Shown here one piece after another: positions 4,170 through 28,844 of a DNA stretch of 38,395 bases; position 1 is the stretch's first letter; every line of letters begins with the position of its first letter. The position numbers and the translations under genes are program-made. The stretch comes from a virus. Lineage: Duplodnaviria; Caudoviricetes. The DNA is taken from IMG/VR virus record IMGVR_UViG_3300031801_000004, positions 1 through 38,395 of that record. One strand, written 5' to 3'. Under the pieces are notes generated by a model. The model was given only the letters and a program-made list of their open reading frames with translations. It did no database searches and was not told the DNA's origin.

Positions 4170-4904
4170 ATGAAAAAGAAGAGGAGACCACCGCCAGCAG
4201 CCAAGGACAGCGGTGCGCCAAAAAAGAAGGCCGCGCCCAAAAAGAAGGCCGCGACAAAGAAAACGTCCGCGCCAAAGAAGCGACGCAATTTCCACCGGGA
4301 AGAGCCGGACACCGAAGGCGAAAAACTCTTTACGGGATGCACTGATAAGCAGCGAATGTTTCTGCAGGTGATCTCGGTCACCGGTCAGCTCGCTAAGGCG
4401 AGGGACACGACTCAATGCGGGAAATGGAGTCATCACCGCTGGCTTCACCACGACGACAATTACCGTCGTCTGTACAAAATTGCCATGGCGATGGCGGCCG
4501 ACCACCTAGAGAGCGAAGCGACGCGGCGCGCCAAGGACGGCATATCGCGCCTCAAATTCTGGCAAGGTGCCCTGATTACTGTCCCGCTCCGAGACGACAC
4601 TGGAAGCCTTGTTTTCCAGAACGGCGAGGTGGTCATGGTGCCCTACGTCGAAACGGAATATTCAGACTCTCTAATGACCACGCTCCTGAAAGGGTGGAAA
4701 CCCAAGAGATACCGCGAGCGTCAGGACATTAAGATGAACCTGAACACGTCCGACCGGGTCGCCGGCAAAACGCCAGAGGAAGCGGTCGAGGCAACGAAAG
4801 AGCGACTGGTTAAGCTGTTCGAGACGCGGATGCGACAAAAGACTCCCATCGGCTCAAATGGAACCGGCAAGCCGCACGGGAACGGCAGCAATGGCAAAAA
4901 ATGA
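4170..4904 (+). CDS. terS: Terminase small subunit with Lys/Ala-rich N-terminal tail
   Basis: KQRMFL...HRW...DDNY...ADHLESEATRRAKDG...EYSDSLMTTLLKGWKPKRYRER is typical of TerS. Directly upstream of TerL with ATGA overlap. PKKKAA repeats at the N-terminus. Confidence 0.8.
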   Translation: MKKKRRPPPAAKDSGAPKKKAAPKKKAATKKTSAPKKRRNFHREEPDTEGEKLFTGCTDKQRMFLQVISVTGQLAKARDTTQCGKWSHHRWLHHDDNYRRLYKIAMAMAADHLESEATRRAKDGISRLKFWQGALITVPLRDDTGSLVFQNGEVVMVPYVETEYSDSLMTTLLKGWKPKRYRERQDIKMNLNTSDRVAGKTPEEAVEATKERLVKLFETRMRQKTPIGSNGTGKPHGNGSNGKK

Positions 4905-6412
4905 CGGCTACTATCGCGGAGATGGCGGAGGCTCTGGCCGACTGCCCGGAAGCGCAGGACCTGCTCGCCAAGCTTGAAGACAGCTTTTTCTACACCTTCC
5001 GTCCTCGGCCAGACAACCCCGCCAGGTACGACGAGCAACAGAGTTTTGTTGAAGACAGAATTCCTGGTGTGGCTGGGCTAATTGGTGGAAATGCGAGCGG
5101 CACCTCAGAATCCGCCGCGTATAAATTGTCGCAGTTCGTCCTGAACCGCCAGCTGCCTCCACGGCAAGACACTCCGTTCTGGATCGTCGGTCCCAAGATA
5201 GACCAGACGATCAAAACCTTCTGGAAGGAAAAACTCTTCGGCCACGGTCACATCCCGCACAGCGAAATCGACTGGAAGCGCATCAGGTGGCACTCGGAAA
5301 AGCAGGCGCTCCCGTTCTCCGTCCCCCTGCTACCGTGGCCTGAGTCTAAAGGCGGAGATCCTCACAGGAACTGGTGCATCGAATTCAGATCATTTGCTGA
5401 AGGCACGGCCGTAATGACCGCCGAGTCGATCGGTGGCTTCTGCTGCACCGAACCGTTCCCTCGCGAACTGCTCACGGAGATCATGCGAGCCACGCGAGAA
5501 TACAACTATCCCGGGTCCATGTTTTTCGAGCTCACACCGGTCGATCCAAGTTTGACGTATTGGATCGAAGAGATGATTGTCGACGACAAGGTGCCGGATA
5601 CCTGGAAATTCTACCGCTGCAACCTGGAGTGCAACGCAGAGGATCCGAATAGCGTTGTCGGAAAGAAGTGGGCTACCGATTTCCTGGAGTCGGTCAGCGA
5701 CGAGATGGTCGAGACGCGCAAGACCGGCGCTTTCGCGTCTTACGAAGGCCTGATTTACCAGTCGTTCAACCGCGCGATCCACGTTGTGGACGACATGGAA
5801 ATACCAACCACTGGAGTAATCCACAAACGGTCGATCGACTGGGGAGCGAGCGAGGAGCATCCGTTCGTTTGTGTTTTTGCATACAAGGACGCCGTCGGAG
5901 TCTGGAACGTGTACGGCGAATATCACTCCACCGATCAAACGATGCTTTGGGCGGACCACTGCGAAGTCATTAAGGGAATGTATCCCTGGATGAACAATCA
6001 CCCAACGTATCGCGAGACCTACGGTGACCCGTCGCGTCCAGACTTGTTTCGGGAGTTCTCCAACAACGGGATCCCCGTGACTCCAGCGAAGAACGACGTC
6101 GACCAGGGGATTGAGGCCGTTCGCAGATTCCTCAAGGTTCACCCACTGATTGGTCCAAAACTTCGGGTGGCCAGCTGGTGCAAGCAAGTCATCAAGGAGT
6201 TCTTCACCTACCGCTGGGAGCAGTCGTCGGGAAGGGGCATTAACCCACGGGTCGCGAAGCCGAAGCCACTCAAGAAATATGACGACGCGATGGACGCCTT
6301 GCGATACCTAATCTTCACCGACTATCGGTCGAACATTGGGGGCGCCTCAAGTCACCGTACCGAACAACGGCGACGTCCCCAGGTCCGACACAAGCGGCAT
6401 CACGATCGGTGA
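4901..6412 (+). CDS. terL: Terminase large subunit (Terminase_6-like ATPase + RNase H-like nuclease)
   Basis: Walker-A-like GGNASGTS, coupling motif LTP, GAF...GLIY linker, nuclease SIDWG and DDAMDALRY. Confidence 0.9.
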   Translation: MTATIAEMAEALADCPEAQDLLAKLEDSFFYTFRPRPDNPARYDEQQSFVEDRIPGVAGLIGGNASGTSESAAYKLSQFVLNRQLPPRQDTPFWIVGPKIDQTIKTFWKEKLFGHGHIPHSEIDWKRIRWHSEKQALPFSVPLLPWPESKGGDPHRNWCIEFRSFAEGTAVMTAESIGGFCCTEPFPRELLTEIMRATREYNYPGSMFFELTPVDPSLTYWIEEMIVDDKVPDTWKFYRCNLECNAEDPNSVVGKKWATDFLESVSDEMVETRKTGAFASYEGLIYQSFNRAIHVVDDMEIPTTGVIHKRSIDWGASEEHPFVCVFAYKDAVGVWNVYGEYHSTDQTMLWADHCEVIKGMYPWMNNHPTYRETYGDPSRPDLFREFSNNGIPVTPAKNDVDQGIEAVRRFLKVHPLIGPKLRVASWCKQVIKEFFTYRWEQSSGRGINPRVAKPKPLKKYDDAMDALRYLIFTDYRSNIGGASSHRTEQRRRPQVRHKRHHDR

Positions 6413-6936
6413 GTTGTTCCATTTACCATGTCCTGTTCGTCAGAGAGCCAGGATAAGCTTACCGCGTCAATGCCAGCGGATATCGCTTCAAGTGCCTTAA
6501 GCTCCTCCTCGTCTCCACTGATAGCAGCCCGCTTCACTCTTTCACTGTGCTCCTGCATCGCCGCAAGTAACACGACACCCAGCTTGTTAGTCGGAAGATG
6601 GCCATACTGGAACTCTGTCGGAACCTCACCGCTCTTCGCAAACGCGTACCTCCCGTCTTCCTGTCTCACCAAGATAACGTTTCGGGTGCCTTCGGCGTTA
6701 ACTCGCGGTGGTTCCTCGCCAAGCGGGACGTCGTCAAAACTTTCATGCTCTAGCAGCACGTCCACGCAGTCACGCAATGCGTTCACTGCGGTGGATATCA
6801 CCCGCGCCCCGTCTGGCGGTCCCTCAATGTGAGAGAATGCAATCCCGTGCGGCCACTCGTCCATTCTCTGGAAGTAAATGGCCAGGCATTGAAGGTTCAC
6901 CATGTAAATCCGTACGCGGCGATCTTTACGTTCCAT
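6400..6936 (-). CDS. Hypothetical protein
   Basis: 178-aa ORF with AAGGAG RBS; last gene of the minus-strand cassette. Confidence 0.65.
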   Translation of the reverse strand: MERKDRRVRIYMVNLQCLAIYFQRMDEWPHGIAFSHIEGPPDGARVISTAVNALRDCVDVLLEHESFDDVPLGEEPPRVNAEGTRNVILVRQEDGRYAFAKSGEVPTEFQYGHLPTNKLGVVLLAAMQEHSERVKRAAISGDEEELKALEAISAGIDAVSLSWLSDEQDMVNGTTHRS

Positions 6937-6948
6937 TGAAGTCTCCTT

Positions 6949-7809
6949 TTAGGAAAAAATTAGATTGCTGACCTGCGGTGCGTTACTGTTTTGGATTGAT
7001 ATTTGCATGTCCGAGTACGACTCGAATAAGAAGAGGTTTTCAAGGCGATTGTCTCCCATGTCACCATTGATGTGCCAAATCGGCTCATCAGACCATACCA
7101 AGGCGCGCCCGATAACAGACTCCACGATCACCCTGTGTTCAAGTCTGTATTTCTGTGCATCGTCACACCAGACATGAACACCTGACTCGTTTTGCCATGT
7201 GCCACCACGGTAAGACGGAGAGTGTTCCCCTACAGTCCACTGGTACTTACATGAGTTACTGCAGAACCTAGGAGGATTGTTGACAAACCTTAGACGCCGT
7301 TCAAAGCCACTTCCGCACTGCTCGCATTTGAACACGCACTTTTTAATTCGCGAGTCATTCGCGCACTTCGGAGAGCAGAAGGGTCGGGCAGAACCTTTTG
7401 TGAGGTATGCTTCAAACTCGCTCCCACACCAATTGCACTCGCTGACGACTTTTGTCCCGCGAACGGCCGCCCAACATACACGAGAGCAATACTTAGGCCA
7501 TACACCATGATCCGCTTTACCTTCAAATGACTTGCCGCAGTTAGCGCATTCCAGCGTCCTTCTCTCTGCTCGTCGAACCCCTCCCGAACATGCGAGGCTA
7601 CACCATTTAGCGGTTGCCACTCTCCCCCGACATCCTACACGAAACTCTTTTCCGCACTTTATGCACGTTGCCGTGAGGACGCCGTATGGATACCTGCAGG
7701 AATGCGAACAGTACCTGGGTGGCTTGGTGCGACCTTTGCGATTCCGCACAGTAACACCGCATGTTTCGCAACGTGAGTCTGTGGTGGATGATGTCACTTT
7801 GCTTATCAT
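6949..7809 (-). CDS. HNH endonuclease with ~5 tandem CxxC...YCSxxC zinc-ribbon repeats
   Basis: Repeated CxxCG..F.....(Y/F/W)CSxxC units. C-terminal EHR..E..IGR.L...HINGD..DNRLENL (HNH_3-like). ATG 7809 overlaps the cas12m-like stop (ATGA). Confidence 0.8.
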   Translation of the reverse strand: MISKVTSSTTDSRCETCGVTVRNRKGRTKPPRYCSHSCRYPYGVLTATCIKCGKEFRVGCRGRVATAKWCSLACSGGVRRAERRTLECANCGKSFEGKADHGVWPKYCSRVCWAAVRGTKVVSECNWCGSEFEAYLTKGSARPFCSPKCANDSRIKKCVFKCEQCGSGFERRLRFVNNPPRFCSNSCKYQWTVGEHSPSYRGGTWQNESGVHVWCDDAQKYRLEHRVIVESVIGRALVWSDEPIWHINGDMGDNRLENLFLFESYSDMQISIQNSNAPQVSNLIFS

Positions 7810-9521
7810 GTCAACACACACTCGTTCTTGTCGGATGCCCGCATTAAATTGATGCACGCGTTGCGGTCCTGGTCGAAGGTACTGCCACAGTTTACGCAGG
7901 TATGGATAAGCTCTTGCGGATTCACCTCGCCGCTGATCTTGTCGCACACATGGCACGTGCGGGTAATGTTTTTCGCGGACATCTCCTCCACGTCGGAAAA
8001 CGCATTCCGAAGCTTACCCTCAAGAATCGACGGTGACGCCATCCCTTTACGCGCTCTCGCGAGTTTCTTTTCGTCGCTCTCCTCAACCCGCGGCTTTTTC
8101 TGGAACACTCGCCAGTCGATCTTCCCAAGCACCAGGGTTTTGTATTTCCGGCGAAGGTCCCTGGCGAAGTTTCGGTATAGATCAAGTCGCCACGCCTGGT
8201 ACTTGCGGCGGTTGTTTTCCTGCCACTCGTAAAGGTGCTTGTCCTGCTTTCTCCACGATTCTACGGCGCAGAATATGGCCTCGTCGCCCCCAAAGCGTAA
8301 GTCGCGCCACAACAGAGACACTAACGCCAGTTTCGCCTGGGCTCGCCAGTGCGACAGATTATCCAGCCGGCTGCGGAGCCACTCGTAGCCGTCGGCCGAG
8401 GCGGCAGGAAGGCCGTTGCCTGGTTTGTGTTCCTTCATCCACCTCGACAGTTCCTTTTTCATGGTGTCGAAGTCCTTGTCGCGGGTCGACTTCAACGCGT
8501 CACACTTCGGTAAACGCCTGAGGTATGCCGGTGGGATGACCAGCTCGCCCTCCTCTCCGTCAGAGCCAAGCCAATAGGCTGTGCGCATCTCGCCGTCCTT
8601 GGTTCTCCACCCAAGATTCACAGCCACATTGCCTTCGGTCGCATCGTCGGTGCGCGGGAAGCCGTTGGCGGAAGACACGACAAACTGCACGGTCCAGTTC
8701 GTTTTCGTTGCCACGCGGCGAGCAATCAGATAGACCCATTTAATTTGCGACCCGGGGGGAATCTCCCGGTGCACCTCGGAGAGCACTGTTGCCCAGATTG
8801 GCCGTCGACCATCCGAACCAACCCGAATCCATATCCGATGCTTGCGCCCGTCCCGGCGACCGCCAGTCTTCCGCCCAGGTGTCTCGACGGGCTCGATCCT
8901 TATCCTGTTGTCCTCGCAACTCATGGACTGCTCTGGAGAGATGCCCTTTTGTAGCTGCACGGCAATTCGGCCGTCACCACGGAAACGCTTGAACCGAGGA
9001 GGGGCGCCGCTCTTCCGTTTCGACATCGCCTGCTCAACCGCCAGGTACGTTCCCCAGTACAGATTACAGTCCTTGCGTGCCTGAAGCATCAACTTCTTGT
9101 CGGACTCGTCTATCGCGATCTGACTGGATTTGAACTTGGGATTCTCGAACGTGGCCTGTCGCAGCTCTTTCCGGCGCGCACGCAGGACCTTGAGGTCTTT
9201 CCGGGCTTGCGTTAGCTCTTCTCGTAATTCCTTCGGCGCGGCCGATCTCTTGCGAGACGCTTGGCGGAACTTCTTCACTTTCACCTCAAGCTCGTCAAAT
9301 TCCAACTCCCTTGCTTCAATTGCTTCCTCGGTTTTCTTTAAGTCGGGACATACCTCACAGGTCAATTCGTCGACCTGCGCCCGACGCTTTAGCTCGATCT
9401 CAACTATCTGGTTGCGGTAGCGGTTCGCATACCGTAGCTGCCTCTGAAGTTCGACGAGATTAGTGTCAACTCGGCAACCGTACACCATGACTTTACTGGG
9501 CAGAGAGTCGTTTCCAAACAC
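7806..9521 (-). CDS. cas12m: Cas12m-like (type V-M, former V-U1) effector with inactivated RuvC
   Basis: 571 aa. Motifs I recognise from Cas12m, in order: QLRYANRYRNQIVEI, long coiled coil, LYWGTY, RFRGDGRIAVQLQ, VHREIP, VAVNLGWR (RuvC-I, D to N), WQENNRRK..RLDLYRNFA, TRTCHVC, CVNCGSTFDQDRNA. GGAG RBS before GTG 9521. Confidence 0.8.
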   Translation of the reverse strand: MFGNDSLPSKVMVYGCRVDTNLVELQRQLRYANRYRNQIVEIELKRRAQVDELTCEVCPDLKKTEEAIEARELEFDELEVKVKKFRQASRKRSAAPKELREELTQARKDLKVLRARRKELRQATFENPKFKSSQIAIDESDKKLMLQARKDCNLYWGTYLAVEQAMSKRKSGAPPRFKRFRGDGRIAVQLQKGISPEQSMSCEDNRIRIEPVETPGRKTGGRRDGRKHRIWIRVGSDGRRPIWATVLSEVHREIPPGSQIKWVYLIARRVATKTNWTVQFVVSSANGFPRTDDATEGNVAVNLGWRTKDGEMRTAYWLGSDGEEGELVIPPAYLRRLPKCDALKSTRDKDFDTMKKELSRWMKEHKPGNGLPAASADGYEWLRSRLDNLSHWRAQAKLALVSLLWRDLRFGGDEAIFCAVESWRKQDKHLYEWQENNRRKYQAWRLDLYRNFARDLRRKYKTLVLGKIDWRVFQKKPRVEESDEKKLARARKGMASPSILEGKLRNAFSDVEEMSAKNITRTCHVCDKISGEVNPQELIHTCVNCGSTFDQDRNACINLMRASDKNECVLT

Positions 9522-9592
9522 TGTATTTCTCCGTTAAAGCTAGATACACACCGCGTCCGCGATACGACGCCTCGCGGCAGGCAACACTATTC

Positions 9593-10283
9593 ACGACTGA
9601 CCGGACACGGCTCGACATGACGTGACTCGACTTGTCTGACCTGACAGAGCATGGCCGGACACGACCGGACAGAACATGACGGGACCCGACTGGACCTGAC
9701 TGCCATGACGCGACTGGACCGAACCCAACAGGACCTGAGACTGACTCGACTGACCTGACGCGACATAACCGGACCTGACGCGATCAGAACTGGACTAGAC
9801 TGACTTGACGGGACCAGACCCAACTGGACCGGGCACAACTTGACTCGACTGACTTGACTCGACTCAACTCGACACGACGCGACACGACTGTCCAGGACTA
9901 GACTGACCTGACGCGACTCTACCGAAACCTGACGACACAGGGCACGACTTGTCTGACCTGCCTCGACTTAACGTGAACACGACGTAACTCGACGAGACTC
10001 GCCTGACCTGACTCGACTCGACCCGACTGACACGGCTCAACACGACCCGACGCGACAGGACTGGACTTGACAAGACCGAACTCAACAGGGGCACGTCTCG
10101 ACTGACAGGACAAAACCTGACCTGACAAAACTCGACTCGACGCGACTCAACTAGACTGACACGACACGACATGACGGAACCAGCCTCGACGAAACCCGAC
10201 TGACTTGACTCAACTTGACTTTACTCGACTTGACTTGACTTGACTTGTCTGACTCGACACGACCAGGCTTGGCACGCCCCGAC
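9593..10283 (-). repeat. Non-coding GTY-NN pentamer array (~126 pentamers in 14 units separated by 4-nt GTCA); candidate guide-RNA array
   Basis: Minus strand reads gtcGG ggcGT gccAA gccTG gtcGT gtcGA [gtca] gacAA gtcAA... Constant triplet is mostly GTC/GTT and the dinucleotide varies. Separators (plus-strand tgac) at 10250, 10201, 10157, 10103, 10028, 10004, 9954, 9904, 9850, 9801, 9751, 9701 (tgcc), 9637, 9598. Confidence 0.9.
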
Positions 10284-10286
10284 ATG

Positions 10287-10787
10287 TCACACAAGCTCAA
10301 TGTCGTCGATTTCGTTAAACACCAGGCCAAAAATATCAGCATATTCCCTGTACCGGTTCCGCCATCGATTGGCTTCGGAAAGTGCCTTTTTGGCAACCTG
10401 ATCCGATAGCCCCTTGTCTTTCATAATTGTCTGCACAGAGACGTAGCCCGTTTCCACATCGTCCTCTCCGACCTGCACGGTAACACTGTGGAACGCGCGT
10501 GTAGTTTGGGACTTTCCGTTGACGCGGACCACTACCTTTACGTAGGCCAGATATTTACGTGCCTGAAGAACCCTATACGCTCCAGCCGCGGCAGCATCGT
10601 TCCAGACAAACATGTCGTGTATGGGGCTGCCCTTTGGTTTCGCGTATGCAGCCAGTTGCTCGGCTTTCACATGCGTCTGACCGGTCTTCTGCTTAATGTC
10701 CTCGATCACATCTCCCAGCACTTGCGCCTGGTCGTCAGTGATCGGGGCGTGGTTAGACGCCTTGTATCGTTTGCGTCGTTTTGCCAT
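10287..10787 (-). CDS. Conserved-looking phage protein, partner of the RAMP-like gene (166 aa)
   Basis: ATG 10787 with GGGAG RBS. Motif SPIHDMFVWNDAAAAGAYRVLQAR resembles a recurrent phage hypothetical family. Stop lies 3 nt before the array. Confidence 0.75.
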   Translation of the reverse strand: MAKRRKRYKASNHAPITDDQAQVLGDVIEDIKQKTGQTHVKAEQLAAYAKPKGSPIHDMFVWNDAAAAGAYRVLQARKYLAYVKVVVRVNGKSQTTRAFHSVTVQVGEDDVETGYVSVQTIMKDKGLSDQVAKKALSEANRWRNRYREYADIFGLVFNEIDDIELV

Positions 10788-10851: not shown

Positions 10852-11598
10852 CTAAGCGGACATCTCGATCTTCTTGAGATCGACGTCAAAGCGACCGTGA
10901 TTGTTACCCTGCCGCTCAGGGCGATCGTCGCCCACGCCAACAGAGAATCCAGCGTGAGTCATCAGGTTGATTATCGCTCCTGGAGTAATCACGTTCGTGT
11001 TGTACTGGACGGTAACTACCGCGCTCCACTTGTCGAATCCCGGTCGGTACCGCAAGTCGGTGCTTCCATTCGGCAACCGAACCGTGTCCGTCCGCATGTG
11101 CGGAACCTTGGACGTTTTAATGGTGACCAATTCCGTGCCATCGCGACTCTCTCGCGCATCGCTGATCACGAACAGCGCACCGCGGCACAGCACCATCGTG
11201 AGCCCATCGACGAATCGGCACGCACTGACGATGCACTTCTTGAAGGCCGCGGCGGGCATTCCGTACACGCATCCCTTTTCCCCCGGATTCCCGCTCGCGA
11301 CATACATCGCTTCCAGGAATTCTGATTTCGGGTCACGCTTCTCCTTTTTGTTCCGCGCCTTACCGGCCTGGATATCCTCCATCATTTTCCGCGCCTTCGG
11401 ACCAAATCGGTGCATGATCAGGTCGTCACTGGCCGCCATGCCGGTGACGGGGACCTGGATCTCCATTCGCTGTACCTCTGGGATTTCTAGCACCACCGAT
11501 TTTCCCTTACCCTTCGCGGTCGACTCCGCGTGGGTGATGTCTCCGTTGCCGTTTTGTGACGCTGACTTGGCTGACTTGACTGCTGCTCTGGCCTGCAT
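10852..11598 (-). CDS. Stand-alone Cas7/RAMP-superfamily-like protein (Vipr-like)
   Basis: RAMP-like motif order: IQVPVTG....LIMH, YGMPAAAFKKCIVSA (compare P.IPgsslKG), RYRPGFDKWSAVVTVQY, and a C-terminal Gly-rich loop AGFSVGVGDDRPERQGNNHGRFDV. Start is ATG 11598 (AAAGG) or GTG 11613. Confidence 0.7.
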   Translation of the reverse strand: MQARAAVKSAKSASQNGNGDITHAESTAKGKGKSVVLEIPEVQRMEIQVPVTGMAASDDLIMHRFGPKARKMMEDIQAGKARNKKEKRDPKSEFLEAMYVASGNPGEKGCVYGMPAAAFKKCIVSACRFVDGLTMVLCRGALFVISDARESRDGTELVTIKTSKVPHMRTDTVRLPNGSTDLRYRPGFDKWSAVVTVQYNTNVITPGAIINLMTHAGFSVGVGDDRPERQGNNHGRFDVDLKKIEMSA

Positions 11599-11643
11599 GG
11601 GTGTACCTTTCACATAGGAGTTAAATGAAGCAAGACAGGAGTA

Positions 11644-11671
11644 ATATTATCAGCACGTGATAATCCGTCAA
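11644..11671 (-). promoter_or_regulatory. Sigma70-like promoter with overlapping palindromic operator
   Basis: TTGACG-16 nt-TAATAT. Inverted repeat ATTATCA-N5-TGATAAT at 11646-11664. Confidence 0.55.
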
Positions 11672-15871: not shown

Positions 15872-16024
15872 TACGACACTCCGTTTGAAGGATTCGGAAT
15901 CAAAAACCAACAGGACCTTATCGCTTACTGCGAAACACAGCAACCCCGAGTCAGCCTTCGATTGTTCTAAGTCTTGGCGGTAGGCTACAATTTGGTCTTA
16001 AGGATGCACGGAAACAAGGGGATT

Positions 16025-19000
16025 ATGATGATCCGATCGCCAAAGGGTGGGATACGAATTGGGGGGCGCAGCTTTCCTTCTGGGATGCAGATCCCGGAGA
16101 AATACCGCCGGCAATTACAATCCTCTCGTCCCGCCGATCCCGGCCAGGGGTCCACTGCGGGAGTCCCGAACCTCGGACGACCTCCAGTCCCTCACGTGGT
16201 CACGTTCAGCGGGATGGTCACGAGCCTGTCGAAGGCCTACCGAAACAGCGATGAGGCTCTGAGGCATAGCGAAGAAAACGCCCACGCTATGTTAAACGAC
16301 CCGGTGGTTTCGGGTCCTCTATTCGGCCGGCAGATGATGACCGCCTTGCTCAACTGGTCCATCGAGACAGAAGACGATAAAGACCCGAAGCTAAAGGCTT
16401 TAGCGGCTGACCTGACCGACATTATGAAGCGCATTCCGGACTTCACGGAGTACCGCCGGTCGCTTATGGAAGCCGTTTGGTACGGTCGCTGCGCCATCCA
16501 GCACGCTTACGGATTCCACACCAACAGGCACGGGACGAAACGGCGAATCATCCGAAAGTGGACGCCGGTCAGCGGGGATAAGCTGCTGTTTCGGTACGAC
16601 GACGGGACCGGAGATTTTGACCCGGACCAAATCGGCGTGCGGATGTCCGCCGCGCATTCAAAACACGACATTGTCGCAGGCGACCGCCACCTAGAGGCCA
16701 CCGGGGAGGGTCTGGGGTACTTTCTGCAGCCGTGGGAACGCAAGATGTGGGTCTTGCACAAGCACATGATCCGGGACGGCGAGTTCGAGGACCCGATTTC
16801 CGGCGGCCAAATCCACGGTGTTGGCCTGCGACACTTCCTTTACTGGGTCTGGTACCAGAAACAGGAAACTCTCGCCCAGATTGCCGAGCTGATCGACCGC
16901 ACGGGCATGGGGTTCACGATCTACTTCTACCCCAGCGGGAACGAGTCAGCCCGTCAGGAAGTCGAGAAGATTTCCAAGGAGCAAGCTCACACGAACGTGA
17001 TCTTGATGCCGTCCGAGGAGAATGACCAATATCGGGTCGAGCAGATTCCCCCCAATACGCAGGGGCTGGAAGTCCTTCGAAGCGTAGTCGAAGACTTCTT
17101 CGGGGACATGATTACCAGGTTCATCCTTGGCCAAACTCTCAGTTCAAAGTCGTCCTCGACCGGCATGAATTCGGGAGTCGCGGACCTGCAGAAGGACACC
17201 CTGAATCACATCATTCGGTACGACGCGATCAAGCTCGAAGAGACGATCACCAGGGATGTTCTCCACCACCTGAGAGACATAAACTTCCCCAAATATCGCA
17301 ACGTCGACATGTGGTTCCGCATTTCGACGAAGTCCTCGGCTCCCCAGGAAGAGCTGTCGGCGATGATGCAACTGTGGCAAATGGGTGCGCGCATCAAGAC
17401 CGCTGACATCTTCGACCGGCTCGACCTGTCAATGCCGGATCCCGACGACCAGCAGCTGTTCAACCCGCAAATCGTCATGCAGATCGACCAGATGGAGCAA
17501 CAGGAAGGAGCACCCCAGGATCCAATGGGCGGCGCGCCGATGGGAATGCCGCAGGACGGGGACAACGACGGGATGGTCGGCGAAGGCACCGAGGAGTTCG
17601 GGGAAGCTGGAGTCCCCGAGCAGATGGACAAGGAGGCCGAGGAGGAGCGAGAGAAAGAGCGTGTATTCGGTCCGATCATGCACAAAAAGACGGACTTACG
17701 CAAGGACATCTCAGACGCCGCGGCCTACACGGACAGAAATCCCAGCGACAGCCAGCGGGAGGCCGGCAACTACAAGAAGGGACGGTTTTGGTGGAACGGA
17801 CTGGAAATCGCCATCGAGACGCCGCGGGGAGCAAGCAGGCGTCCGGAATGGCCGAAGCTGTCGGCACACTACGGATACATAAAGCTCCACGAGAGCGAGG
17901 CGGACGGGGACCACCTGGACGTGTTTATCGGTCCCTCGCCAGAAAGCGACCTGGTCGTCGTAATTGACCAGGTGACCAAAGGAGGCCGCTTTGACGAGCA
18001 CAAGATAGTCCTGGCCTGCACTTCGACAAAAGAGGCCGTCGAACTCTACAAAGACTCATACTCGTCAGGGTTTAAGGTCGGTCCAGTTACGACAATGACG
18101 GTCGAACAGTTCAAATTCTGGCTGACCGACGGTTCGACTAAGAAACCAATCAACGCGCAGGTATCGAGGTACCGCAAGTACGCGAAACAGCTTAGCCTGT
18201 GGGACGACGATGCGCACCCACGCGCGACCGAGCACGTCAACATTGATGGGCGTACCTACGAGTCCGGCCAGTGGGTTCCGAAGGACAAGGCGGCCGAGGC
18301 TACCCCTAAGGAGCAAGAGTCGATCGAGATGGTTGACGAAGAGACCGGTGAGACCGAGCCTTTTGAAGACACGGAACAAGTTGAAACTGACTCAACACCC
18401 ATGGATCCCGGGACAAAGCTTAAGTCCGGCCAGGCCGTTCATGGTTACTACAGCAACGGCATAGACGAGGTTAAGTTTTCTGGGAAGGTCGGAAGCATCC
18501 ATACGGATACGGCTGGTGGTAATTTCAAAACAGCCAGGATTACTCTCGATAATCCTGTCACGATGTCTTCCACGGGCGAGCGAACTGTATTCACGGCCAC
18601 GCTAAGCGACACCAGCGAGCTACACGACAGTAAATTCTCGTCGCAGTCGAAAATGGCAGAGGAAATTGAGGAGTCACCCGAGGAATCCATGCAACTGGAC
18701 AAGAAAGGTCCAGCGGGGCTAACCAAATCCGAGGCGATGGCCAAGGCAATGGAAGGCAGTAATCGTAATGTGGCCAGTTATGACCAGGCCGTTCATGCTA
18801 CCTATCTCTATACCGGAACCTCTTCATCTGATTGGAGTTCCGTTCCAATCAAGGACTTCAGAGATGTTGATGATGGCAATGGTGGACAGGTATCAATGCC
18901 GGAGTTTGATTTCCCTAGCGGCTACAAGCAGGCGGACGTGATTTTCGGTAATGAAGGTGGCAATGTTGGCTCTGGTTCCTGTGAGTTGTGCGGACATTCC

Positions 19001-20056
19001 ATCAAGAACAATTACCACATTCAAAATGATAAAGACAAACTCACGATGCAGGTAGGAAGTGAGTGCGTAACTAACTTTGCTGAGGGAGAGAGTGGAGCCA
19101 AATTGGCGAAAAAGGCCAAGGCTGAAATGAATCGCGACATGCTCCGCCAAGTGTGGACAGCTCGCGATGATCTAGCAAAAGTCTGGGGCGACCAGAACCA
19201 AAAAACTGGCAAGTGGGAAATCAGAAAAGGACAGGTGTACTACAAGATTGCCGCCAGGGATTACCAAAACGAACCCAAGGACAAGCGTTTTGGAGGATTT
19301 GAAAATAAGGATCTGGAACGCCAAGTCAGGCAGCGGTCACATGAAATCGAAAAGTTGTACCAGAGAATCGACAAAGTGGCCAGCAACTCAAAGGGAGATC
19401 CCATCCCGGCTGATGACTACGAGAATGTTACCCAGCGCTGGCATGACAATCGTTCTTATGGTGGAGGACAGGGAGGGTGGCGGACGCAGACGCACAAGAT
19501 GGAAGCTACTGCGGATGGGGTAATTACCCGATGGGCAAAGGCTCGCAAAGATGATGTCCGGGAAGTTTTGGAGCAGGTGGATGAGATTTTAGGACGATCC
19601 GGAACTGACGAAAGGGCGGCCGGTGACGGCGAACAGGATAACACTCCAGAGATTCCCCAAAAGAGCGCCAAGCAGTACGCCAAGGACCTGGACACAGAAC
19701 GGCTCTCGCCGTTGTTCGACGACGGCCACCTCGACCAGGAGACGATCGAGCACCTGCGACAGATAGCCGGCGACTTCATCAGTGGCACGGAGATTCCCCG
19801 GGACGCCGTTGTCGACGTTCAGTTGACGGGGTCGATGTCCGGCTACAACTGGAACAACGGGAGCGACATCGACCTGCATATTATTGTTGACCCCGAGCTC
19901 TTGCTAGCACCCCCCGAACTCCTCTCGGACTATTTTTACAACGTATCGGCCAACTGGAACGCCCGCCATTCGGTGACCATCGGAGGCCACGAGGTTGAAG
20001 TATTCGTTGAGCCCATGAAAGAAACGATCGGAGACCTCTTGGTAGTGGCGACATGA
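16025..20056 (+). CDS. Portal protein (DUF935/Mu gp29-like) fused to inorganic-pyrophosphatase-like, Zn-ribbon and N-terminal nucleotidyltransferase domains
   Basis: Portal: AVWYG, G.GL...YW.W..K, ILGQTLSS. PPase-like: AGNYKKG...IETPRG...HYGYI...DGDHLDVFIGP...FDEHK. CELCG...VGSEC. NTase: LTGSMSGYNWNNGSDIDLHI...EVEVFVE. Confidence 0.85.
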   Translation: MMIRSPKGGIRIGGRSFPSGMQIPEKYRRQLQSSRPADPGQGSTAGVPNLGRPPVPHVVTFSGMVTSLSKAYRNSDEALRHSEENAHAMLNDPVVSGPLFGRQMMTALLNWSIETEDDKDPKLKALAADLTDIMKRIPDFTEYRRSLMEAVWYGRCAIQHAYGFHTNRHGTKRRIIRKWTPVSGDKLLFRYDDGTGDFDPDQIGVRMSAAHSKHDIVAGDRHLEATGEGLGYFLQPWERKMWVLHKHMIRDGEFEDPISGGQIHGVGLRHFLYWVWYQKQETLAQIAELIDRTGMGFTIYFYPSGNESARQEVEKISKEQAHTNVILMPSEENDQYRVEQIPPNTQGLEVLRSVVEDFFGDMITRFILGQTLSSKSSSTGMNSGVADLQKDTLNHIIRYDAIKLEETITRDVLHHLRDINFPKYRNVDMWFRISTKSSAPQEELSAMMQLWQMGARIKTADIFDRLDLSMPDPDDQQLFNPQIVMQIDQMEQQEGAPQDPMGGAPMGMPQDGDNDGMVGEGTEEFGEAGVPEQMDKEAEEEREKERVFGPIMHKKTDLRKDISDAAAYTDRNPSDSQREAGNYKKGRFWWNGLEIAIETPRGASRRPEWPKLSAHYGYIKLHESEADGDHLDVFIGPSPESDLVVVIDQVTKGGRFDEHKIVLACTSTKEAVELYKDSYSSGFKVGPVTTMTVEQFKFWLTDGSTKKPINAQVSRYRKYAKQLSLWDDDAHPRATEHVNIDGRTYESGQWVPKDKAAEATPKEQESIEMVDEETGETEPFEDTEQVETDSTPMDPGTKLKSGQAVHGYYSNGIDEVKFSGKVGSIHTDTAGGNFKTARITLDNPVTMSSTGERTVFTATLSDTSELHDSKFSSQSKMAEEIEESPEESMQLDKKGPAGLTKSEAMAKAMEGSNRNVASYDQAVHATYLYTGTSSSDWSSVPIKDFRDVDDGNGGQVSMPEFDFPSGYKQADVIFGNEGGNVGSGSCELCGHSIKNNYHIQNDKDKLTMQVGSECVTNFAEGESGAKLAKKAKAEMNRDMLRQVWTARDDLAKVWGDQNQKTGKWEIRKGQVYYKIAARDYQNEPKDKRFGGFENKDLERQVRQRSHEIEKLYQRIDKVASNSKGDPIPADDYENVTQRWHDNRSYGGGQGGWRTQTHKMEATADGVITRWAKARKDDVREVLEQVDEILGRSGTDERAAGDGEQDNTPEIPQKSAKQYAKDLDTERLSPLFDDGHLDQETIEHLRQIAGDFISGTEIPRDAVVDVQLTGSMSGYNWNNGSDIDLHIIVDPELLLAPPELLSDYFYNVSANWNARHSVTIGGHEVEVFVEPMKETIGDLLVVAT

Positions 20057-20232
20057 CGTGGAACGTCTACATCACGGCGGGCGGGAAGGAATACCCAGCG
20101 CCCCGAAGCCCGTTCGGTAGCATCCTGTCTGTCCTGGAAGGCCTGGCAGATAACCTCGAAACGATGGTACCAGTGCTGGACGTGACTGCCATTCGAATCG
20201 AAGCCGCCGATGACGAGGAGGATTACATCTAA
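20053..20232 (+). CDS. Small hypothetical protein (59 aa, not in ORF track)
   Basis: MTWNVYITAGGKEY...DDEEDYI; ATGA overlap with the portal stop. Confidence 0.45.
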   Translation: MTWNVYITAGGKEYPAPRSPFGSILSVLEGLADNLETMVPVLDVTAIRIEAADDEEDYI

Positions 20233-20387
20233 TGGCAAATCCAACGAACACTGCCGCTGAAATCTTGAAACTGTTATTCCTTCTGTTCTGCCTCTGCTTG
20301 CTGGTTTCAGTGGTTAATCCTCGTGTATGGAATGCAATAACCCCAGAACTGCTGCACGTTCCGACGCGGGAGCATGACAATGGATGA
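20232..20387 (+). CDS. Small membrane protein (51 aa, not in ORF track)
   Basis: MANPTNTAAEILKLLFLLFCLCLLVSVV...; TAATG overlap; one hydrophobic helix. Confidence 0.45.
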   Translation: MANPTNTAAEILKLLFLLFCLCLLVSVVNPRVWNAITPELLHVPTREHDNG

Positions 20388-20610
20388 CGCGACGAATGTG
20401 ATAGTTCACCGGTCAGAATTTCAAAGCCAGCTGGCCGCGCTGATCAACGAATTCAGCAAGGACTCTGAGTGCAATACCCAGGATTTCGTTTTGGCTATGT
20501 ATCTCGACGACTGCCTCAGATCGTTCGGTCGCGCTACCGCCCGCCGCGAGCAGCTACTCCAGGATGACGTCAAGTCTGAATTCGACCTACGCGAACCGCT
20601 GAAGGGCTAA
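20374..20610 (+). CDS. Conserved small phage protein
   Basis: FQSQLAALINEFSKDSECNTQDFVLAMYL resembles a recurrent phage family (E..SNTPDFILA.YL). Confidence 0.6.
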   Translation: MTMDDATNVIVHRSEFQSQLAALINEFSKDSECNTQDFVLAMYLDDCLRSFGRATARREQLLQDDVKSEFDLREPLKG

Positions 20611-20612
20611 CA

Positions 20613-22013
20613 ATGGTTGCTGGCCAAGGACGATACTCGATAATTCGCAACGAGTGGGACACGCTTCCTGGTGACGCCCCGGAGAGCGACGAGGCTTGCG
20701 TGCAGCGCAAAGCCAGTTCACTTCGCGCCACGATCGAAGAGGCTCTGGATGTCGACGACCCGACTGTCCTCGCGAGACTCCTGGAGCGTATTCACGCCTT
20801 CCGGACACACGGCGTTGCGTCGGCACTGGGCGAGTTCTCGCTCGAAAACCTGGTCTACAAGCTACTTCGAAACGACGGCACCATCGAGAAGCTTAAGGAA
20901 GCCGCGATACGGAGCTACGACGAGTCCCTAAGCTACGCGCAAAAGTACGCCAAGTGGATGCCCTACACCGGACCCCGCGGAGGGCGCGGCTGGCAAAACA
21001 CGGAAACCGGGGAGAAGTTCTACGGGAGCGACCCGCCTGGTGAACGAAAGGCCGCGCAGCCGGATGATATCGGTGAACCTAATCACGCTGCTGATACGAT
21101 AAATCAGGTAACGGCTGATCTCAGGAAAAGTCTGGCTGGCAGGTCCGGGCGCGAAACCGGCACCCCGAAACCAAAGGCCGGCGGCAAGACTGGTCTGTCG
21201 CAAAAACTGGACAGTGCTGAGTTCGGGACTGAAATCGAGGGATGGACGAAAACCGACATCCCCGAAATGAACATGTCCGGATGGAGCAACGGCGAGACCA
21301 TGCTCACGGACGAGCAAATGCTCAAGTTCAATAATTCTGACGTGGCGAATCACTTCAAGGAGCAGGAACCTGAGCAGCCGCAAGCAGCGAGTCCACAAAA
21401 GCCCGCGAAGCCTGCAAGGCCAGCCAAACCGCCAGTACGATCAAAGACGAGCGCCGCGTCCAGGCCGTTCACGGACGACGAAAAGCAATCCATTCACAAC
21501 GTCGCCAAGGTGTTCGGTATAGCTCCGGGAGATATCAGAAACGACGCGCGACTGCAGCAGTTCCTGAAGCTCACGGCCAGGAACGTGGGGTTCGACCCAG
21601 AGACAGCGGGTCCAGACCTCACAGACCAAGCCCTGGCGTCTGCGGAGTACCTGAACACTCAATCAAAGTACCTCGAACACGTCGTTGAGATGGCAAAAGC
21701 CTACAAGTGGAAAGGAGGCACGGGGAGAGAATTAGCGGTGAAATCACGCAACGCCGCGCACCACCTTCTGAAAACAGCAACCGCCCAGGGCTACCAGCCT
21801 ACAGGCGACAGCCAGAAAGACATCGAAGGCGCAATCAACTTCTTGCAGGATCAGGAGACAGAGCAGCCGGGCGACAACAACGCCATAACGGACATTCTGA
21901 AAATGCTCTTGCAGAAGCCCGAGAAGATCAGCGCGGCGCACGTGGTTGGCGCGGTACTGGGATTTTGGTTAGCCTATAGAACGGTCAGGCGAAGAAAACG
22001 TAGTCGTCGATAA
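20613..22013 (+). CDS. C-terminal half of the phage nucleotidyltransferase fused to further cargo domains
   Basis: GRYSIIRNEW...P...FR..G....GEFSLENLVYKLLRNDG.IEKL continues the NTase family begun at the portal end. Then YAKWMPYTGPRGGRGW and a C-terminal hydrophobic plus basic tail. Confidence 0.75.
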   Translation: MVAGQGRYSIIRNEWDTLPGDAPESDEACVQRKASSLRATIEEALDVDDPTVLARLLERIHAFRTHGVASALGEFSLENLVYKLLRNDGTIEKLKEAAIRSYDESLSYAQKYAKWMPYTGPRGGRGWQNTETGEKFYGSDPPGERKAAQPDDIGEPNHAADTINQVTADLRKSLAGRSGRETGTPKPKAGGKTGLSQKLDSAEFGTEIEGWTKTDIPEMNMSGWSNGETMLTDEQMLKFNNSDVANHFKEQEPEQPQAASPQKPAKPARPAKPPVRSKTSAASRPFTDDEKQSIHNVAKVFGIAPGDIRNDARLQQFLKLTARNVGFDPETAGPDLTDQALASAEYLNTQSKYLEHVVEMAKAYKWKGGTGRELAVKSRNAAHHLLKTATAQGYQPTGDSQKDIEGAINFLQDQETEQPGDNNAITDILKMLLQKPEKISAAHVVGAVLGFWLAYRTVRRRKRSRR

Positions 22014-22046
22014 CGATCCACCGGGCGAATCCCACGCCCGGCCACC

Positions 22047-22087
22047 GGACGCCAGAGGTTCCTCCATCCCTCTGGCGTCCTTCTTTT
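22047..22087 (+). terminator. Rho-independent terminator
   Basis: Perfect 12-bp stem GGACGCCAGAGG/CCTCTGGCGTCC followed by TTCTTTT. A second hairpin lies at 22021-22041. Confidence 0.8.
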
Positions 22088-22147
22088 AGGGCGCAATCAA
22101 CTTCCTGCAGTCAGGGATACGATGCGTCCCCGCACGCATAAACGTAC

Positions 22148-22558
22148 CTAGTCGTCGTCGATAACCTCTCCGTCTACGACAGTTCTTCCGTCTCTCGTGG
22201 CCAGCTTCAGCTGACTTGGGTCCCCGTCGTCCCCACCGCTGCTGCGAACGATCAGCGTGTGCTTGCCGTCCTGGGTCAGGCCGCCCATCGCCGTACTTAC
22301 GGCTTTCGGAGGGTCTGGCAGGTTTGTCTTGATCTCGGAGCTGATCTCGTAAGCATCGTTTGTCGGATTATCCCCCTTGGTGTGCTTGACTTTGACCTTG
22401 AGGGTCATTTCCGCTGAGCACCCGATCGCTTTAAGGCCATACGTCAGCAGGTGCCGGCGCAACGCGTTGTTGATCTTCGCAAATGCCTTCTCCGCATTAT
22501 CCAGCAACTCACCCTCTTCTGCGTTTGCAAGCGTGGATGGGATCCATGGTGTCGCCAT
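22148..22558 (-). CDS. Hypothetical protein (YfdP-like partner of DUF2303)
   Basis: L.....G.L...AE...... MTLKVKV...I....K..LP pattern; adjacent to the DUF2303-like gene. Confidence 0.55.
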   Translation of the reverse strand: MATPWIPSTLANAEEGELLDNAEKAFAKINNALRRHLLTYGLKAIGCSAEMTLKVKVKHTKGDNPTNDAYEISSEIKTNLPDPPKAVSTAMGGLTQDGKHTLIVRSSGGDDGDPSQLKLATRDGRTVVDGEVIDDD

Positions 22559-22666
22559 TCTGTGCGTCCTTTCGTTGTTTACGATGTAAGCTGGGCGCGT
22601 GGTCCCGTTAAAGCCGCGATAAGCCAGCGTCGAGTAAAAAATGGCTCCTCGCGGCCATTAAAAACT

Positions 22667-23542
22667 TCAACCGGCCTCGTATTCCAAATACCTCCACTCG
22701 GAATGGCGAACGTAGCCCATCGCCACAACCGCGTCCAAGCTGGCCATCGCGCCGATCATTTCATGAAACACATCGCACTTGGACTGCAGCATAGTGGAAG
22801 ATGTCACGTGAACGACAATATCGTCTTTCCTCTTGGTCACGAGCAAGTCGAACTCAATTGGGACGGACGGCGTACCGATGAAGATTGGGCAGAGAACTGT
22901 AATGCTATCCGGGATGTCCACCGGTTCTGACCGCAGCTCTCCTTGGATTTTCGTCTCCACCACGATGCCGTTTATCGAGCGCGCTCCTTGGCCTCGATTC
23001 AGGGTCATCACGCTGTCGGCCGTGACTTGGCTGAGCATAAATGCCAGCTCCTTACCTGCCTGAGGATCGGCTCCACCAGCGCGACCCTCATAGGTCGATA
23101 TACATCGACGGTGCGTCATGCAGTGTGTCGCAAAATCAAGTACCGGCATGGTCTTACCGATCACCGTGTGCCACGGCTCCAGCACCGGGTGAATCAGCGG
23201 CACAAGAGTCACAATTTCAAAACCGTCGTCTGACGCTTCATTGAGTATCGCCTCGACCTCGCAAGACTCAGCGTTCGCCAGAACTAACGTGTCGTCGGTC
23301 CTGTACTTTTGGAGGTATGCCACAAAACCCTCCACATCGTGAAAGACGTGGCCTCTCCCGGGGCTCTCGATTCTCTGCCACTGCTGGGGCGGTTCCGGCT
23401 GCAGGACCCTCTGTTCAACCACGAGGGACACGCTGTCGGCTTTGTCACCATCCCCAAGGTCCAGAACCTCCTTTGCTACCGTCAATGCCGTCGCCTGACC
23501 CTCGACAACGTTCCGTAGAAGATCGTCTAATGTTTTGGTCAT
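22667..23542 (-). CDS. DUF2303 (YfdQ)-like phage protein
   Basis: FHDVEGFVAYL, A.LN, W......M...DFA, IPDSITV..PIF.G. ATG 23542 with AAGGAG RBS. Confidence 0.6.
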   Translation of the reverse strand: MTKTLDDLLRNVVEGQATALTVAKEVLDLGDGDKADSVSLVVEQRVLQPEPPQQWQRIESPGRGHVFHDVEGFVAYLQKYRTDDTLVLANAESCEVEAILNEASDDGFEIVTLVPLIHPVLEPWHTVIGKTMPVLDFATHCMTHRRCISTYEGRAGGADPQAGKELAFMLSQVTADSVMTLNRGQGARSINGIVVETKIQGELRSEPVDIPDSITVLCPIFIGTPSVPIEFDLLVTKRKDDIVVHVTSSTMLQSKCDVFHEMIGAMASLDAVVAMGYVRHSEWRYLEYEAG

Positions 23543-23588
23543 TGCCCTTTTACTCCTTCGCGGTAAGTGATAATATCTGACTGACGTG

Positions 23589-23617
23589 AGTATCGGATAG
23601 GTGTTTAGATGCGTCAA
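23589..23617 (-). promoter_or_regulatory. Sigma70-like promoter for the DUF2303-like operon
   Basis: TTGACG-17 nt-GATACT, ~45 nt upstream of ATG 23542. Confidence 0.55.
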
Positions 23618-23636
23618 CCTCATGGGAGGAAAAGTC

Positions 23637-23837
23637 ATGCAACGATCAGAAATTATTGAATCATTGACTGACCGTGGACAGGCGGCTGTTTGCAGGGGAT
23701 ACCGGCTGACCCCACAAGACCGGAGGCGAAAACGGTGGTCTGCGGAAGCGGACGGGTACGCGGAGCTGGTGCGCATGATGCGCGTGATTCACTTTCAAAA
23801 ACCAGCGGTTCGGCGCCGCCTGTCACGGACCAATTAA
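23637..23837 (+). CDS. Small Arg-rich hypothetical protein
   Basis: GGAGG RBS, ATG 23637, ends 3 nt before the next gene. Confidence 0.5.
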   Translation: MQRSEIIESLTDRGQAAVCRGYRLTPQDRRRKRWSAEADGYAELVRMMRVIHFQKPAVRRRLSRTN

Positions 23838-23840
23838 CCC

Positions 23841-27263: not shown

Positions 27264-28844
27264 ATGGGCACAGTCCTTTCATACGCTGAGACATATTCTG
27301 ACTTATCCGATGAGGCGTCCAGGACCCTGCAGGATATGCGTCCCAGATGCCCCGGTTACCAGGGGTGGCTCCGAAAGGGAGATGTCGACGACGATGACGA
27401 AGCTCTAGAGGAATTTCTTGAATCTGAGCACGGCATCACGGTTCGCGACGATGGCCGGGTGGAATTCGACCACCTGACGGCGCGCAACCGGAAAATCATC
27501 GGCGACCACCCGGTAGTTCTGAACCATCACACCAGCGACGCGCTCGAAGAGTCCATTCTGGAACGAGGGCTGCTCCGCCGCAGCAAAGACGGCGTCCCGA
27601 GCACAAACCCCCATGTCAACAGTGGCGCCGGCGTCTATCTGACGACCGAGCACACGGGTCCCGTTGTCGATGGCTACCATTCCGTCGCCACCGGTATGCA
27701 CGGCGGTGGACCACGGACGTTCGAGGTTGAGGCTTACCTGGACGAACTCCAGCACGATCCGGACGACGAGGACCTGTCAGTTGGGAAACGGCAGTTCGTT
27801 GCTCCGTCCATCGCTCCGGACAAGATTCTCAATGCGCTGCGCAAAGAGGGGCGGCCAGAGCTTTATACGCCCATGTCGTACGCCAGGACTCCCGGCGAGA
27901 CGATGACGAAAAATGGGGTGACCTATGTCCTTAACGAAAACCACAGGTGGGCAAGCCAAGAACGTTCGCCAACGTTAGCTAACGTTAGCCCGCATGAAAC
28001 CGAACGTTCGGTTGGTAAAACCGCACGTGCGGTTCCTGCCGCGGCGGCATCACAAAAGACGCTTGAAGAATTGAGGCTGTCGCATTTACTGAAGCAAGCG
28101 TCCGATGCCGGCATAATGGAAGCCTGGGATTCTCTTAGCGATTATGCCGGTATAGAGCCCAATCCCCACGCCACCGAGGATTACCAGGCACTTAAAGGGT
28201 TTCTGGAATCTCACGATGGATACCAGAAATACGTTAACGACCAGAATATTCGCCGGGAAAACGCCAACCTGGCGAGAGATCGAATTAAGGACCGGATTGG
28301 TTATTTCATCGAGGAATCCGGGCTAGAGCCAGAGGCAGCCAGCCAATACCAAAAAGCCTCCGAATCAGTTCTCGACTACATGACCCATGACGCGTTGCGG
28401 CTGTTCGCCCGGAATGTCCAGGGAATCAACTACCACGGAAACCTCGCTTCCCTCCAGAAATCACACCATAAAATGAGCGGAAGAGACGCATCCAATGTTG
28501 GAGGATTTTGGTCCTGGCATCCCAGTGAAGACGGCGGAGATTTGCATTTAGACGGCGGACACGACACGGACGAACATACCCGATTTACCGTTCGGCACCT
28601 GTACGCACACGAGTTTGCACATGCCATTGACGGTCAGCAGAAGCTATCCACCCAGCCTGACTGGGTATCTGCCTGGGAATATGAAATTAAGACCTCAGTA
28701 CATCCGCCCAGCGAATACTCGCAGACAAACGCCGTAGAGGGATTTGCGGAGTTCGGTCGTCTGGTTCTGACGTCCCCCGCGGACGCACGCGAGAACTACC
28801 CGGACTGCTACGATTTCTGGAAGAAAAACGGTATCGCACAATGA
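27264..28844 (+). CDS. Polyvalent protein: ADP-ribosyltransferase-like domain + zincin metallopeptidase
   Basis: N-terminal LNHHTS...ILERGL...GVYLT (ART-like). C-terminal HEFAH...SEYSQTN..EGFAE (HExxH zincin). Confidence 0.75.
   Translation: MGTVLSYAETYSDLSDEASRTLQDMRPRCPGYQGWLRKGDVDDDDEALEEFLESEHGITVRDDGRVEFDHLTARNRKIIGDHPVVLNHHTSDALEESILERGLLRRSKDGVPSTNPHVNSGAGVYLTTEHTGPVVDGYHSVATGMHGGGPRTFEVEAYLDELQHDPDDEDLSVGKRQFVAPSIAPDKILNALRKEGRPELYTPMSYARTPGETMTKNGVTYVLNENHRWASQERSPTLANVSPHETERSVGKTARAVPAAAASQKTLEELRLSHLLKQASDAGIMEAWDSLSDYAGIEPNPHATEDYQALKGFLESHDGYQKYVNDQNIRRENANLARDRIKDRIGYFIEESGLEPEAASQYQKASESVLDYMTHDALRLFARNVQGINYHGNLASLQKSHHKMSGRDASNVGGFWSWHPSEDGGDLHLDGGHDTDEHTRFTVRHLYAHEFAHAIDGQQKLSTQPDWVSAWEYEIKTSVHPPSEYSQTNAVEGFAEFGRLVLTSPADARENYPDCYDFWKKNGIAQ

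Follow-up and report, generated by a model that had tools for sequence, protein, structure and literature searches.

The type V-M CRISPR effector Cas12m has been described with 36-nt repeats that form a 3-bp pseudoknot and a stem, as in PmCas12m, which cuts after nucleotides 2–3 of the repeat and 17–18 of the guide and whose activity is abolished by one mismatch within 12 nt (bioRxiv 10.64898/2026.03.26.714355). Cas12m proteins with D-E-D, H-D-D and N-D-D catalytic triads have been compared, and none cuts double-stranded DNA (PMC11013384). A phage Cas12m with an array has already been reported (bioRxiv 10.64898/2026.09.14.751636; PMC11656645): MvCas12m of myxophage MV-1 comes without adaptation genes, has an adjacent eight-spacer array and a D-E-D triad, and no targets were found for its spacers. 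Standalone repeats are known upstream of cas12a (bioRxiv 10.1101/2023.03.03.530964) and single repeat units, described as RNA anti-CRISPRs (Racr), in viruses (PMC11656645); these RNAs and the viral mini-arrays work with or against host systems, mostly of type I and V-A. The phage-borne VIPR system has a solo RAMP protein, one accessory gene and an array of pentamers with a 1-nt stagger on a GGY scaffold (bioRxiv 10.64898/2026.04.26.720920). Further related literature includes PMC10691335 and bioRxiv 10.64898/2026.10.15.759431 and 10.64898/2026.04.20.719267. Statements drawn from these sources refer to the parts of them that were available.

Here we analyse the virus record IMGVR_UViG_3300031801_000004, which derives from a marine phage (seawater metagenomes, with no RNA data set among those listed); the window is this whole single record of 38,395 nt. 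Together with 10.6 kb of the same phage past the left end of the window (G001/L124), 49 kb of phage DNA was examined, about half of the genome (CheckV completeness of 36% for a 33.6-kb contig). The phage encodes a Cas12m that has no array at the usual place, and we put at roughly 0.55 the probability that it is fed by four dispersed lone repeats acting as single guides. In common with described type V-M systems (PMC11013384; PMC10442227), no tracrRNA-like (trans-activating CRISPR RNA) anti-repeat was noticed and no cas1 or cas2 was seen; the locus differs in that no array is present in the 49 kb, four divergent single repeats are spread over 28 kb, and one guide matches the phage itself. Lone repeats upstream of an effector, and in a virus, recall the standalone repeats and Racr; in this phage, though, the cognate non-cutting effector is encoded as well, and no guide source other than the lone repeats was seen. 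Neither an array-free Cas12m with dispersed lone repeats nor a VIPR-Cas12 pairing was found in the literature searched, which left most subscription journals uncovered.

7806..9521, minus strand: cas12m, 571 aa, RuvC N302/G466/D552 (phmmer, homologue alignment, AlphaFold model, Foldseek)

The open reading frame (ORF) starts with the GTG at 9521, with GGAG upstream, and its homologues share the N-terminus MFG. The start lies about 70 nt past the last pentamers of an upstream array, on the strand shared with vipr, vap and that array, as given in a preliminary description of this DNA made from the letters alone. In a phmmer search of the PDB, Cas12m chains were matched with E-values of 3.5e-59 to 6e-12 and TnpB with 2e-3 or worse. 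The AlphaFold model (predicted local distance difference test, pLDDT, of 93) was aligned by Foldseek to the Cas12m structures (8HHL of MmCas12m, 8PM4 of GoCas12m and PDB 23VW) with template modelling (TM) scores of 0.80–0.81, the next family reaching about 0.4. Judged by sequence and predicted fold, the product is a true Cas12m (type V-M), in line with the Cas12m-like identity first proposed. TnpB and TldR are proteins of about 400 aa whose genes have an omega RNA at their 3' end. This identity was rejected on account of the 571 aa with Cas12m insertions, the far weaker phmmer matches to TnpB, the low Foldseek scores of other families, an HNH gene that overlaps the cas12m stop codon, and the presence of CRISPR repeats.

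Two of the three acidic RuvC residues are replaced (N302 in RuvC-I and G466 in RuvC-II) and one is kept (D552 in RuvC-III), exactly as the preliminary description had read them. The same columns hold Asp in 43/55, Glu in 41/55 and Asp in 52/55 of the aligned homologues, and nine share the Asn of N302. An altered RuvC is common to this protein and other type V-M systems. The nuclease-dead state, predicted here by analogy, is ordinary for Cas12m, since the D-E-D, H-D-D and N-D-D members all fail to cut; the N-G-D triad found here lies outside the variants tested in the available part of that work (PMC11013384). In the phmmer alignment, the protospacer-adjacent motif (PAM) residues Q189 and Q191 align with Q195/Q197 of MmCas12m, and the positions of Y141 and N156 differ. 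A FastTree phylogeny of 99 of the 110 Cas12m clusters (shorter proteins left out; overall support moderate) groups the phage Cas12m with L002 and L007, both array-bearing, with a support of 92. The placement among Cas12m and TnpB, which the preliminary description had proposed to check, falls on Cas12m by phmmer and by fold. When genomes were scanned for the family, the sole match was in a Pirellulales assembly (32% identity).

Repeats were located with a model built from the repeats of 35 relatives alone, with the pseudoknot left out. A stem of 6 bp and a pseudoknot of 3 bp are common to the relatives' repeats, and each of the nine pairs shows changes on both of its sides. The model's top three sites in the window, all on the minus strand, are repeats 2, 1 and 3 (E 0.0095, 0.01 and 0.05); the fourth repeat lies beyond the window.

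9555..9590, minus strand: repeat 1, in the cas12m leader; pseudoknot 3/3, stem 6/6; 20.2 bits, E 0.01
22629..22664, minus strand: repeat 2; pseudoknot 3/3, stem 5/6; 2 nt past a stop codon
22110..22145, minus strand: repeat 3; pseudoknot 3/3 with the pairs swapped, stem 6/6; 2 nt past a stop codon
L124 5712-5748, beyond the left end of the window (G001), plus strand in L124 and in the same orientation as the others: repeat 4, 37 nt; a stop codon lies 14 nt before it and an ATG 14 nt after it

All four lone repeats are intergenic and lie on the cas12m strand. The pseudoknot is preserved in 4/4 of them by way of three different sequences, and the pairing positions are those given for PmCas12m in the available text (bioRxiv 10.64898/2026.03.26.714355). 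Three perfect matches to a strict motif lie in the 49 kb, whereas 100 Markov shuffles gave 0.09 on average and never more than 1; with one mismatch allowed there were six matches versus a null mean of 0.96, two of which, in coding DNA, we read as chance. No lone repeat was found in 35 kb of a related phage that is free of cas12m (G002). Repeat 1 and the array repeat of L002 are identical at 22/36 positions. The hairpin at 9557-9577 (arms 9557-9562 and 9572-9577) is the stem of repeat 1. The preliminary description had suggested that Cas12m draws a guide from local RNA, this hairpin included; what stands of this is that the hairpin belongs to Cas12m's own repeat, with the guide on its 3' side in the cas12m leader, and what falls is a guide borrowed from VIPR, the pentamer array being located 5' of the repeat. 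Repeats 2 and 3 are borne by a lineage-specific minus-strand block (window 22014-23840; a DUF2303-like gene and a 136-aa gene), the place of which is occupied by other genes in G002.

No CRISPR array was detected in the window or in the 10.6-kb extension. The earlier statement that none is in view thus extends to 49 kb, but single repeats are present, and a search for repeats elsewhere in the genome, proposed at that stage, gave three more lone repeats and no array. An array lies within 1.2 kb downstream of cas12m in 71/80 other clusters (those with at least 500 nt of DNA there), a count for which detection missed at least L220 and which may include false positives. In the phage this position is taken by the gene that overlaps the cas12m stop codon.

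6949..7809, minus strand: zinc-finger HNH endonuclease gene; ATGA overlap with the cas12m stop codon; occupies the array position of the relatives

Standard CRISPR finders would class this cas12m as an orphan. In the genome search the repeat model missed the known repeat 1 in G001, so that the blank results for G004 and G007 are weak. Standard finders miss the Cas12m arrays of the relatives L011 (6815-8100), L028, L054 and L215, in which divergent repeats follow each other at intervals of about 47 nt with very short spacers between them. A repeat-like sequence, possibly due to chance, is found within the cas12m coding region of L176 (763-798) and L144 (2005-2040).

The guides predicted on the 3' side of the window's repeats, and the one match among them, are as follows.

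9522..9554, minus strand: predicted guide 1 (9538-9554) and the cas12m ribosome-binding site; no target found
22612-22628, minus strand: predicted guide 2; no target found
22090..22109, minus strand: predicted guide 3; 19/20 match to 21828-21847
21828..21847, minus strand: protospacer-like match of guide 3, within ORF 20613-22013 (plus strand); TCC on its 5' side
22047..22080, plus strand: terminator-like hairpin of the plus-strand gene; ancestral, kept in G002; on the minus strand, the guide-3 unit ends in it too

The guide-3 match starts exactly at the boundary of repeat 3 (chance of about 2e-5 for four guides and 49 kb) and lies in a plus-strand gene of 466 aa, 166 nt before its stop codon. 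The mismatch falls on guide position 5 and on a Leu codon's first base, forming a G.T wobble; G002 has the guide-matching base at this position, its allele being otherwise without a match to guide 3. Contigs of four sequencing runs held no allele variants at the target. An exact 17-nt scan of viral contigs with guide 3 gave 11 matches, namely the self match and 10 others of at most 19 nt, four of them in one portal-gene family and none related to the phage; these 10 were rejected as true targets and are read as chance. No PAM could be derived from the relatives: among 648 extracted guides true matches were too few, and the flanks were inconsistent. A C-Y-Y-T-A-A motif follows all four guides at positions 16-23 (found in 1.1% of background windows and noticed post hoc) and is perhaps the stub of a second repeat.

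Self matches do occur in phage Cas12m, since the Cas12m array of L174 contains two spacers (8098-8138 and 8248-8284) identical to its own gene (5037-5107), on opposite strands. The matched gene (4730-5302) is presumably Uma2-like, going by a motif. On sequence grounds, the guide-3 match fits self-silencing, or the targeting of sister phages with the seed mismatch sparing self. The 466-aa target gene follows a 1360-aa portal fused to a pyrophosphatase-like domain (window 15974-22013 for the pair). The fusion and the 466-aa gene seem to split one domain, which we take to be nucleotidyltransferase-like from a motif, and the split is also present in G002.

In the scheme that we prefer, lone repeats feeding Cas12m directly, one repeat per transcript would suffice for a CRISPR RNA (crRNA), because PmCas12m cuts after repeat nucleotides 2–3 and guide nucleotides 17–18. 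By analogy, each lone repeat and the next 17 nt would be excised as a crRNA of about 50 nt, a second repeat being unneeded, and Cas12m loaded with it would occupy matching DNA as a non-cutting block to transcription. In that case guide 3 would act on the phage's own plus-strand gene near its end or, alternatively, hit sister phages that carry a perfectly matching allele. Processing of repeat 1 would sever the cas12m mRNA from the VIPR precursor, leaving 16 nt with the ribosome-binding site, and may serve as feedback on cas12m in an arrangement common to relatives without VIPR.

Several observations weigh against this scheme. The lone repeats are identical to each other at only 17–24 of 36 positions and score weakly when taken singly (E 0.01–0.29). 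The guide-3 mismatch falls in the seed, where PmCas12m tolerates none according to the available text, and TCC is not among the PAMs TTN, YTN, YTTS and TTV given for Cas12m, one paper describing them as T- and C-rich (PMC11013384, PMC10442227, bioRxiv 10.64898/2026.03.26.714355, as far as available). With no more than 260 nt between repeat and target, local duplication could explain the match. The best matches of guides 1, 2 and 4 in the window, the 10.6-kb extension and G002 have at least 3 mismatches in 16 nt, and guides 1 and 2 are also without a match in the collected Cas12m/Vipr loci. An array may lie elsewhere, since only about half of the genome is covered, and the repeats of G003 are 21 kb away from its cas12m. 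Lone repeats can also outlast cas12m, because G006 keeps three dispersed ones (1341, 9786 and 78763; minus strand; L245, L248) beside a truncated gene: the only cas12m seen in the 49% of that genome covered stops after about 170 codons.

Part of this evidence suits the best of the alternatives, which we regard as unlikely: either Cas12m is an ordinary one with an array in the part of the genome that lacks sequence, or it is a relic that lost its array to the HNH gene, and in both cases what remains as lone repeats would be leftovers. The incomplete genome, the HNH gene at the array position, the grouping with array-bearing relatives and the repeats kept in G006 all agree with it. Leftovers would, however, hardly keep pseudoknot and stem by compensating changes in four copies up to 28 kb apart; the cas12m ORF is intact and confidently modelled, and guide 3 matches the present allele of this lineage and not that of G002.

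Distinctly doubtful is an array-free internal regulator, in which the lone repeats, set in different operons, would be mRNA cut sites as well as guides, guide 3 would place a programmable roadblock in a late gene of the phage itself and Cas12m would trim the 3' end of the VIPR precursor. A shade less probable again is that the repeats act only on RNA, as places where Cas12m binds and cuts, so that polycistronic mRNAs are split and their translation is tuned; the 17 nt that follow would then not be DNA guides. Repeats 1, 2 and 4 lie 33, 70 and 14 nt before start codons, two of the G006 repeats stand directly in front of a ribosome-binding site and an ATG, at distances of 6 and 17 nt from the latter, three guides are without a target, and pre-crRNA processing is reported to be RuvC-independent (PMC11013384, available part). 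Closeness to start codons is nevertheless expected, because the intergenic gaps of phages are short, and repeat 3 precedes a hairpin rather than a gene, with a 19/20 guide match in exact spacer register. That the lone repeats are Racr decoys or mini-guides against a Cas12m of the host or a competitor is improbable; the viral single repeat units described as Racr (PMC11656645, as far as available) and the mutual divergence of the repeats would agree with this, but an intact Cas12m is encoded by the phage itself, its gene having one of the repeats in the leader, and no repeat was found in 35 kb of the cas12m-free relative.

Repeats in the leader are found at other cas12m genes as well. A same-strand repeat motif is present within 300 nt upstream of cas12m in 11/96 other clusters, the controls being 3/97 for the opposite strand and 28/3000 for control windows. 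Eight of the 11 are clear (L018, L028, L030, L037, L146, L154, L163 and L170) and three are weak. Six resemble the arrays of their own loci (19–27 of 28 nt); of the remaining two clear cases, L154 has no downstream DNA and L163 shows no match. VIPR is present at none of the 11. The leader repeat is a Cas12m trait and likely a feedback element of type V-M loci, and because it recurs in other phage and metagenome loci, feedback by Cas12m could be tested on it in a simple way. The worthwhile part of the locus is, in our view, the dispersed single repeats and the self-matching guide, the VIPR adjacency mattering less. Judging by the lone repeats, a non-cutting Cas12 may operate array-free and may be directed against the genome that encodes it, and from immunity this would be a natural step towards gene regulation.

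Upstream of cas12m lies a RAMP-plus-pentamer module.

10852..11613, minus strand: vipr, solo RAMP gene (start uncertain); profile match to SUSP1 Vipr; phrog_4652
10287..10787, minus strand: vap-like accessory gene, 166 aa; phrog_15946; tblastn matches next to vipr in most Vipr loci
9591..10288, minus strand: VIPR pentamer array, GTC-NN scaffold; 1-nt-staggered tracts, period 34–54 nt

A profile of 28 vipr homologues matches SUSP1 Vipr (PDB 36PP) with an E-value of 1.9e-13, and the GTC-NN tracts contain 6–13 units each with a 1-nt stagger. By these features the module is the published VIPR system (bioRxiv 10.64898/2026.04.26.720920, as described in the available part), which it resembles in the solo RAMP, the one accessory gene, the location in a phage and the staggered pentamers. 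The scaffold is GTC here and GGY in the published system, and the array here ends in the Cas12m repeat, followed by cas12m; Cas12, TnpB and RuvC are not mentioned in the text of that paper or in one supplementary file. In the phage and G002, no tract of at least 8 units reached 80% NN match when targets of the VIPR RNA (vrRNA) were sought by the 1-nt skip rule. A 1-nt stagger with a GTC or GTT scaffold instead of GGY is seen in the window (9591-10288) and in L108 and L116.

The preliminary description had proposed, as one of two options, two independent DNA-silencing modules in one operon, and this holds, Cas12m and VIPR both being real and adjoining. A functional coupling of the RAMP module to the class 2 effector, which it had also considered, is not supported. 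In profile searches Cas12m was found beside Vipr in 0/59 other Vipr loci (40 clusters, of which 36 extend 2.5 kb or more downstream), and Vipr beside Cas12m in 1/109 other Cas12m clusters, within flanks of 5–10 kb at most, on many short metagenome contigs and with 3 kb upstream in 71/110 clusters. In the single case (L174) Vipr, with a GGC scaffold, lies 5.4 kb upstream past an integrase-like gene, and Cas12m has its own array. The adjacency is a one-off, and VIPR is probably an independent co-passenger of Cas12m in the same inserted cassette. The pentamer array cannot be the guide of repeat 1, because it lies 5' of the repeat and Cas12m guides lie 3'; vrRNA as the Cas12m guide was rejected on this ground and on that of the singleton adjacency. 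That Cas12m is a true VIPR accessory, using vrRNA or joined with Vipr in a complex, is therefore very improbable despite the shared strand, the operon-like spacing, a pentamer register that continues through the first 14 nt of repeat 1 and the joint absence of both from the related phage, since Vipr loci elsewhere lack Cas12m and leader repeats occur without VIPR. The only link that can be supported is that a cut at the 5' end of repeat 1 would set the end of the VIPR precursor; such trimming by Cas12m, if true, would physically connect VIPR to a class 2 effector.

Terminase, portal and further head genes lie on the plus strand of the window. The minus strand carries the cassette between the terminase (ends at 6412) and a KTSC gene (starts at 11791), in the order vipr, vap, pentamer array, cas12m, HNH gene and a 178-aa ORF.

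6400..6936, minus strand: 178-aa ORF, last gene of the cassette, without a family match
11643..11671, minus strand: promoter-like site upstream of vipr; consensus match only, 2 overlapping sites against 2.5 expected by chance, weak

In the related phage G002, at about 70% nucleotide identity, the terminase and KTSC genes are separated by only about 470 nt, and because of this empty site we take the cassette for an insert; the 35 kb of G002 searched gave no match to Vipr or Cas12m. Contigs from two sequencing runs, which may be the source of the record, bridge the cassette without differences.

Some other features of these phages were noticed. A 24-aa motif recurs in several late proteins (window 29510, 35024, 36605 and 37844). 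The ORF at 27264-28844 (526 aa) has an HExxH motif and a sub-threshold match to Pfam ATLF (E 0.006), from which it is likely a phage zinc-peptidase domain. The terminase of G002 (L223 4740-5184) contains an in-frame insertion of about 150 aa at the ATPase motif, likely an intein.

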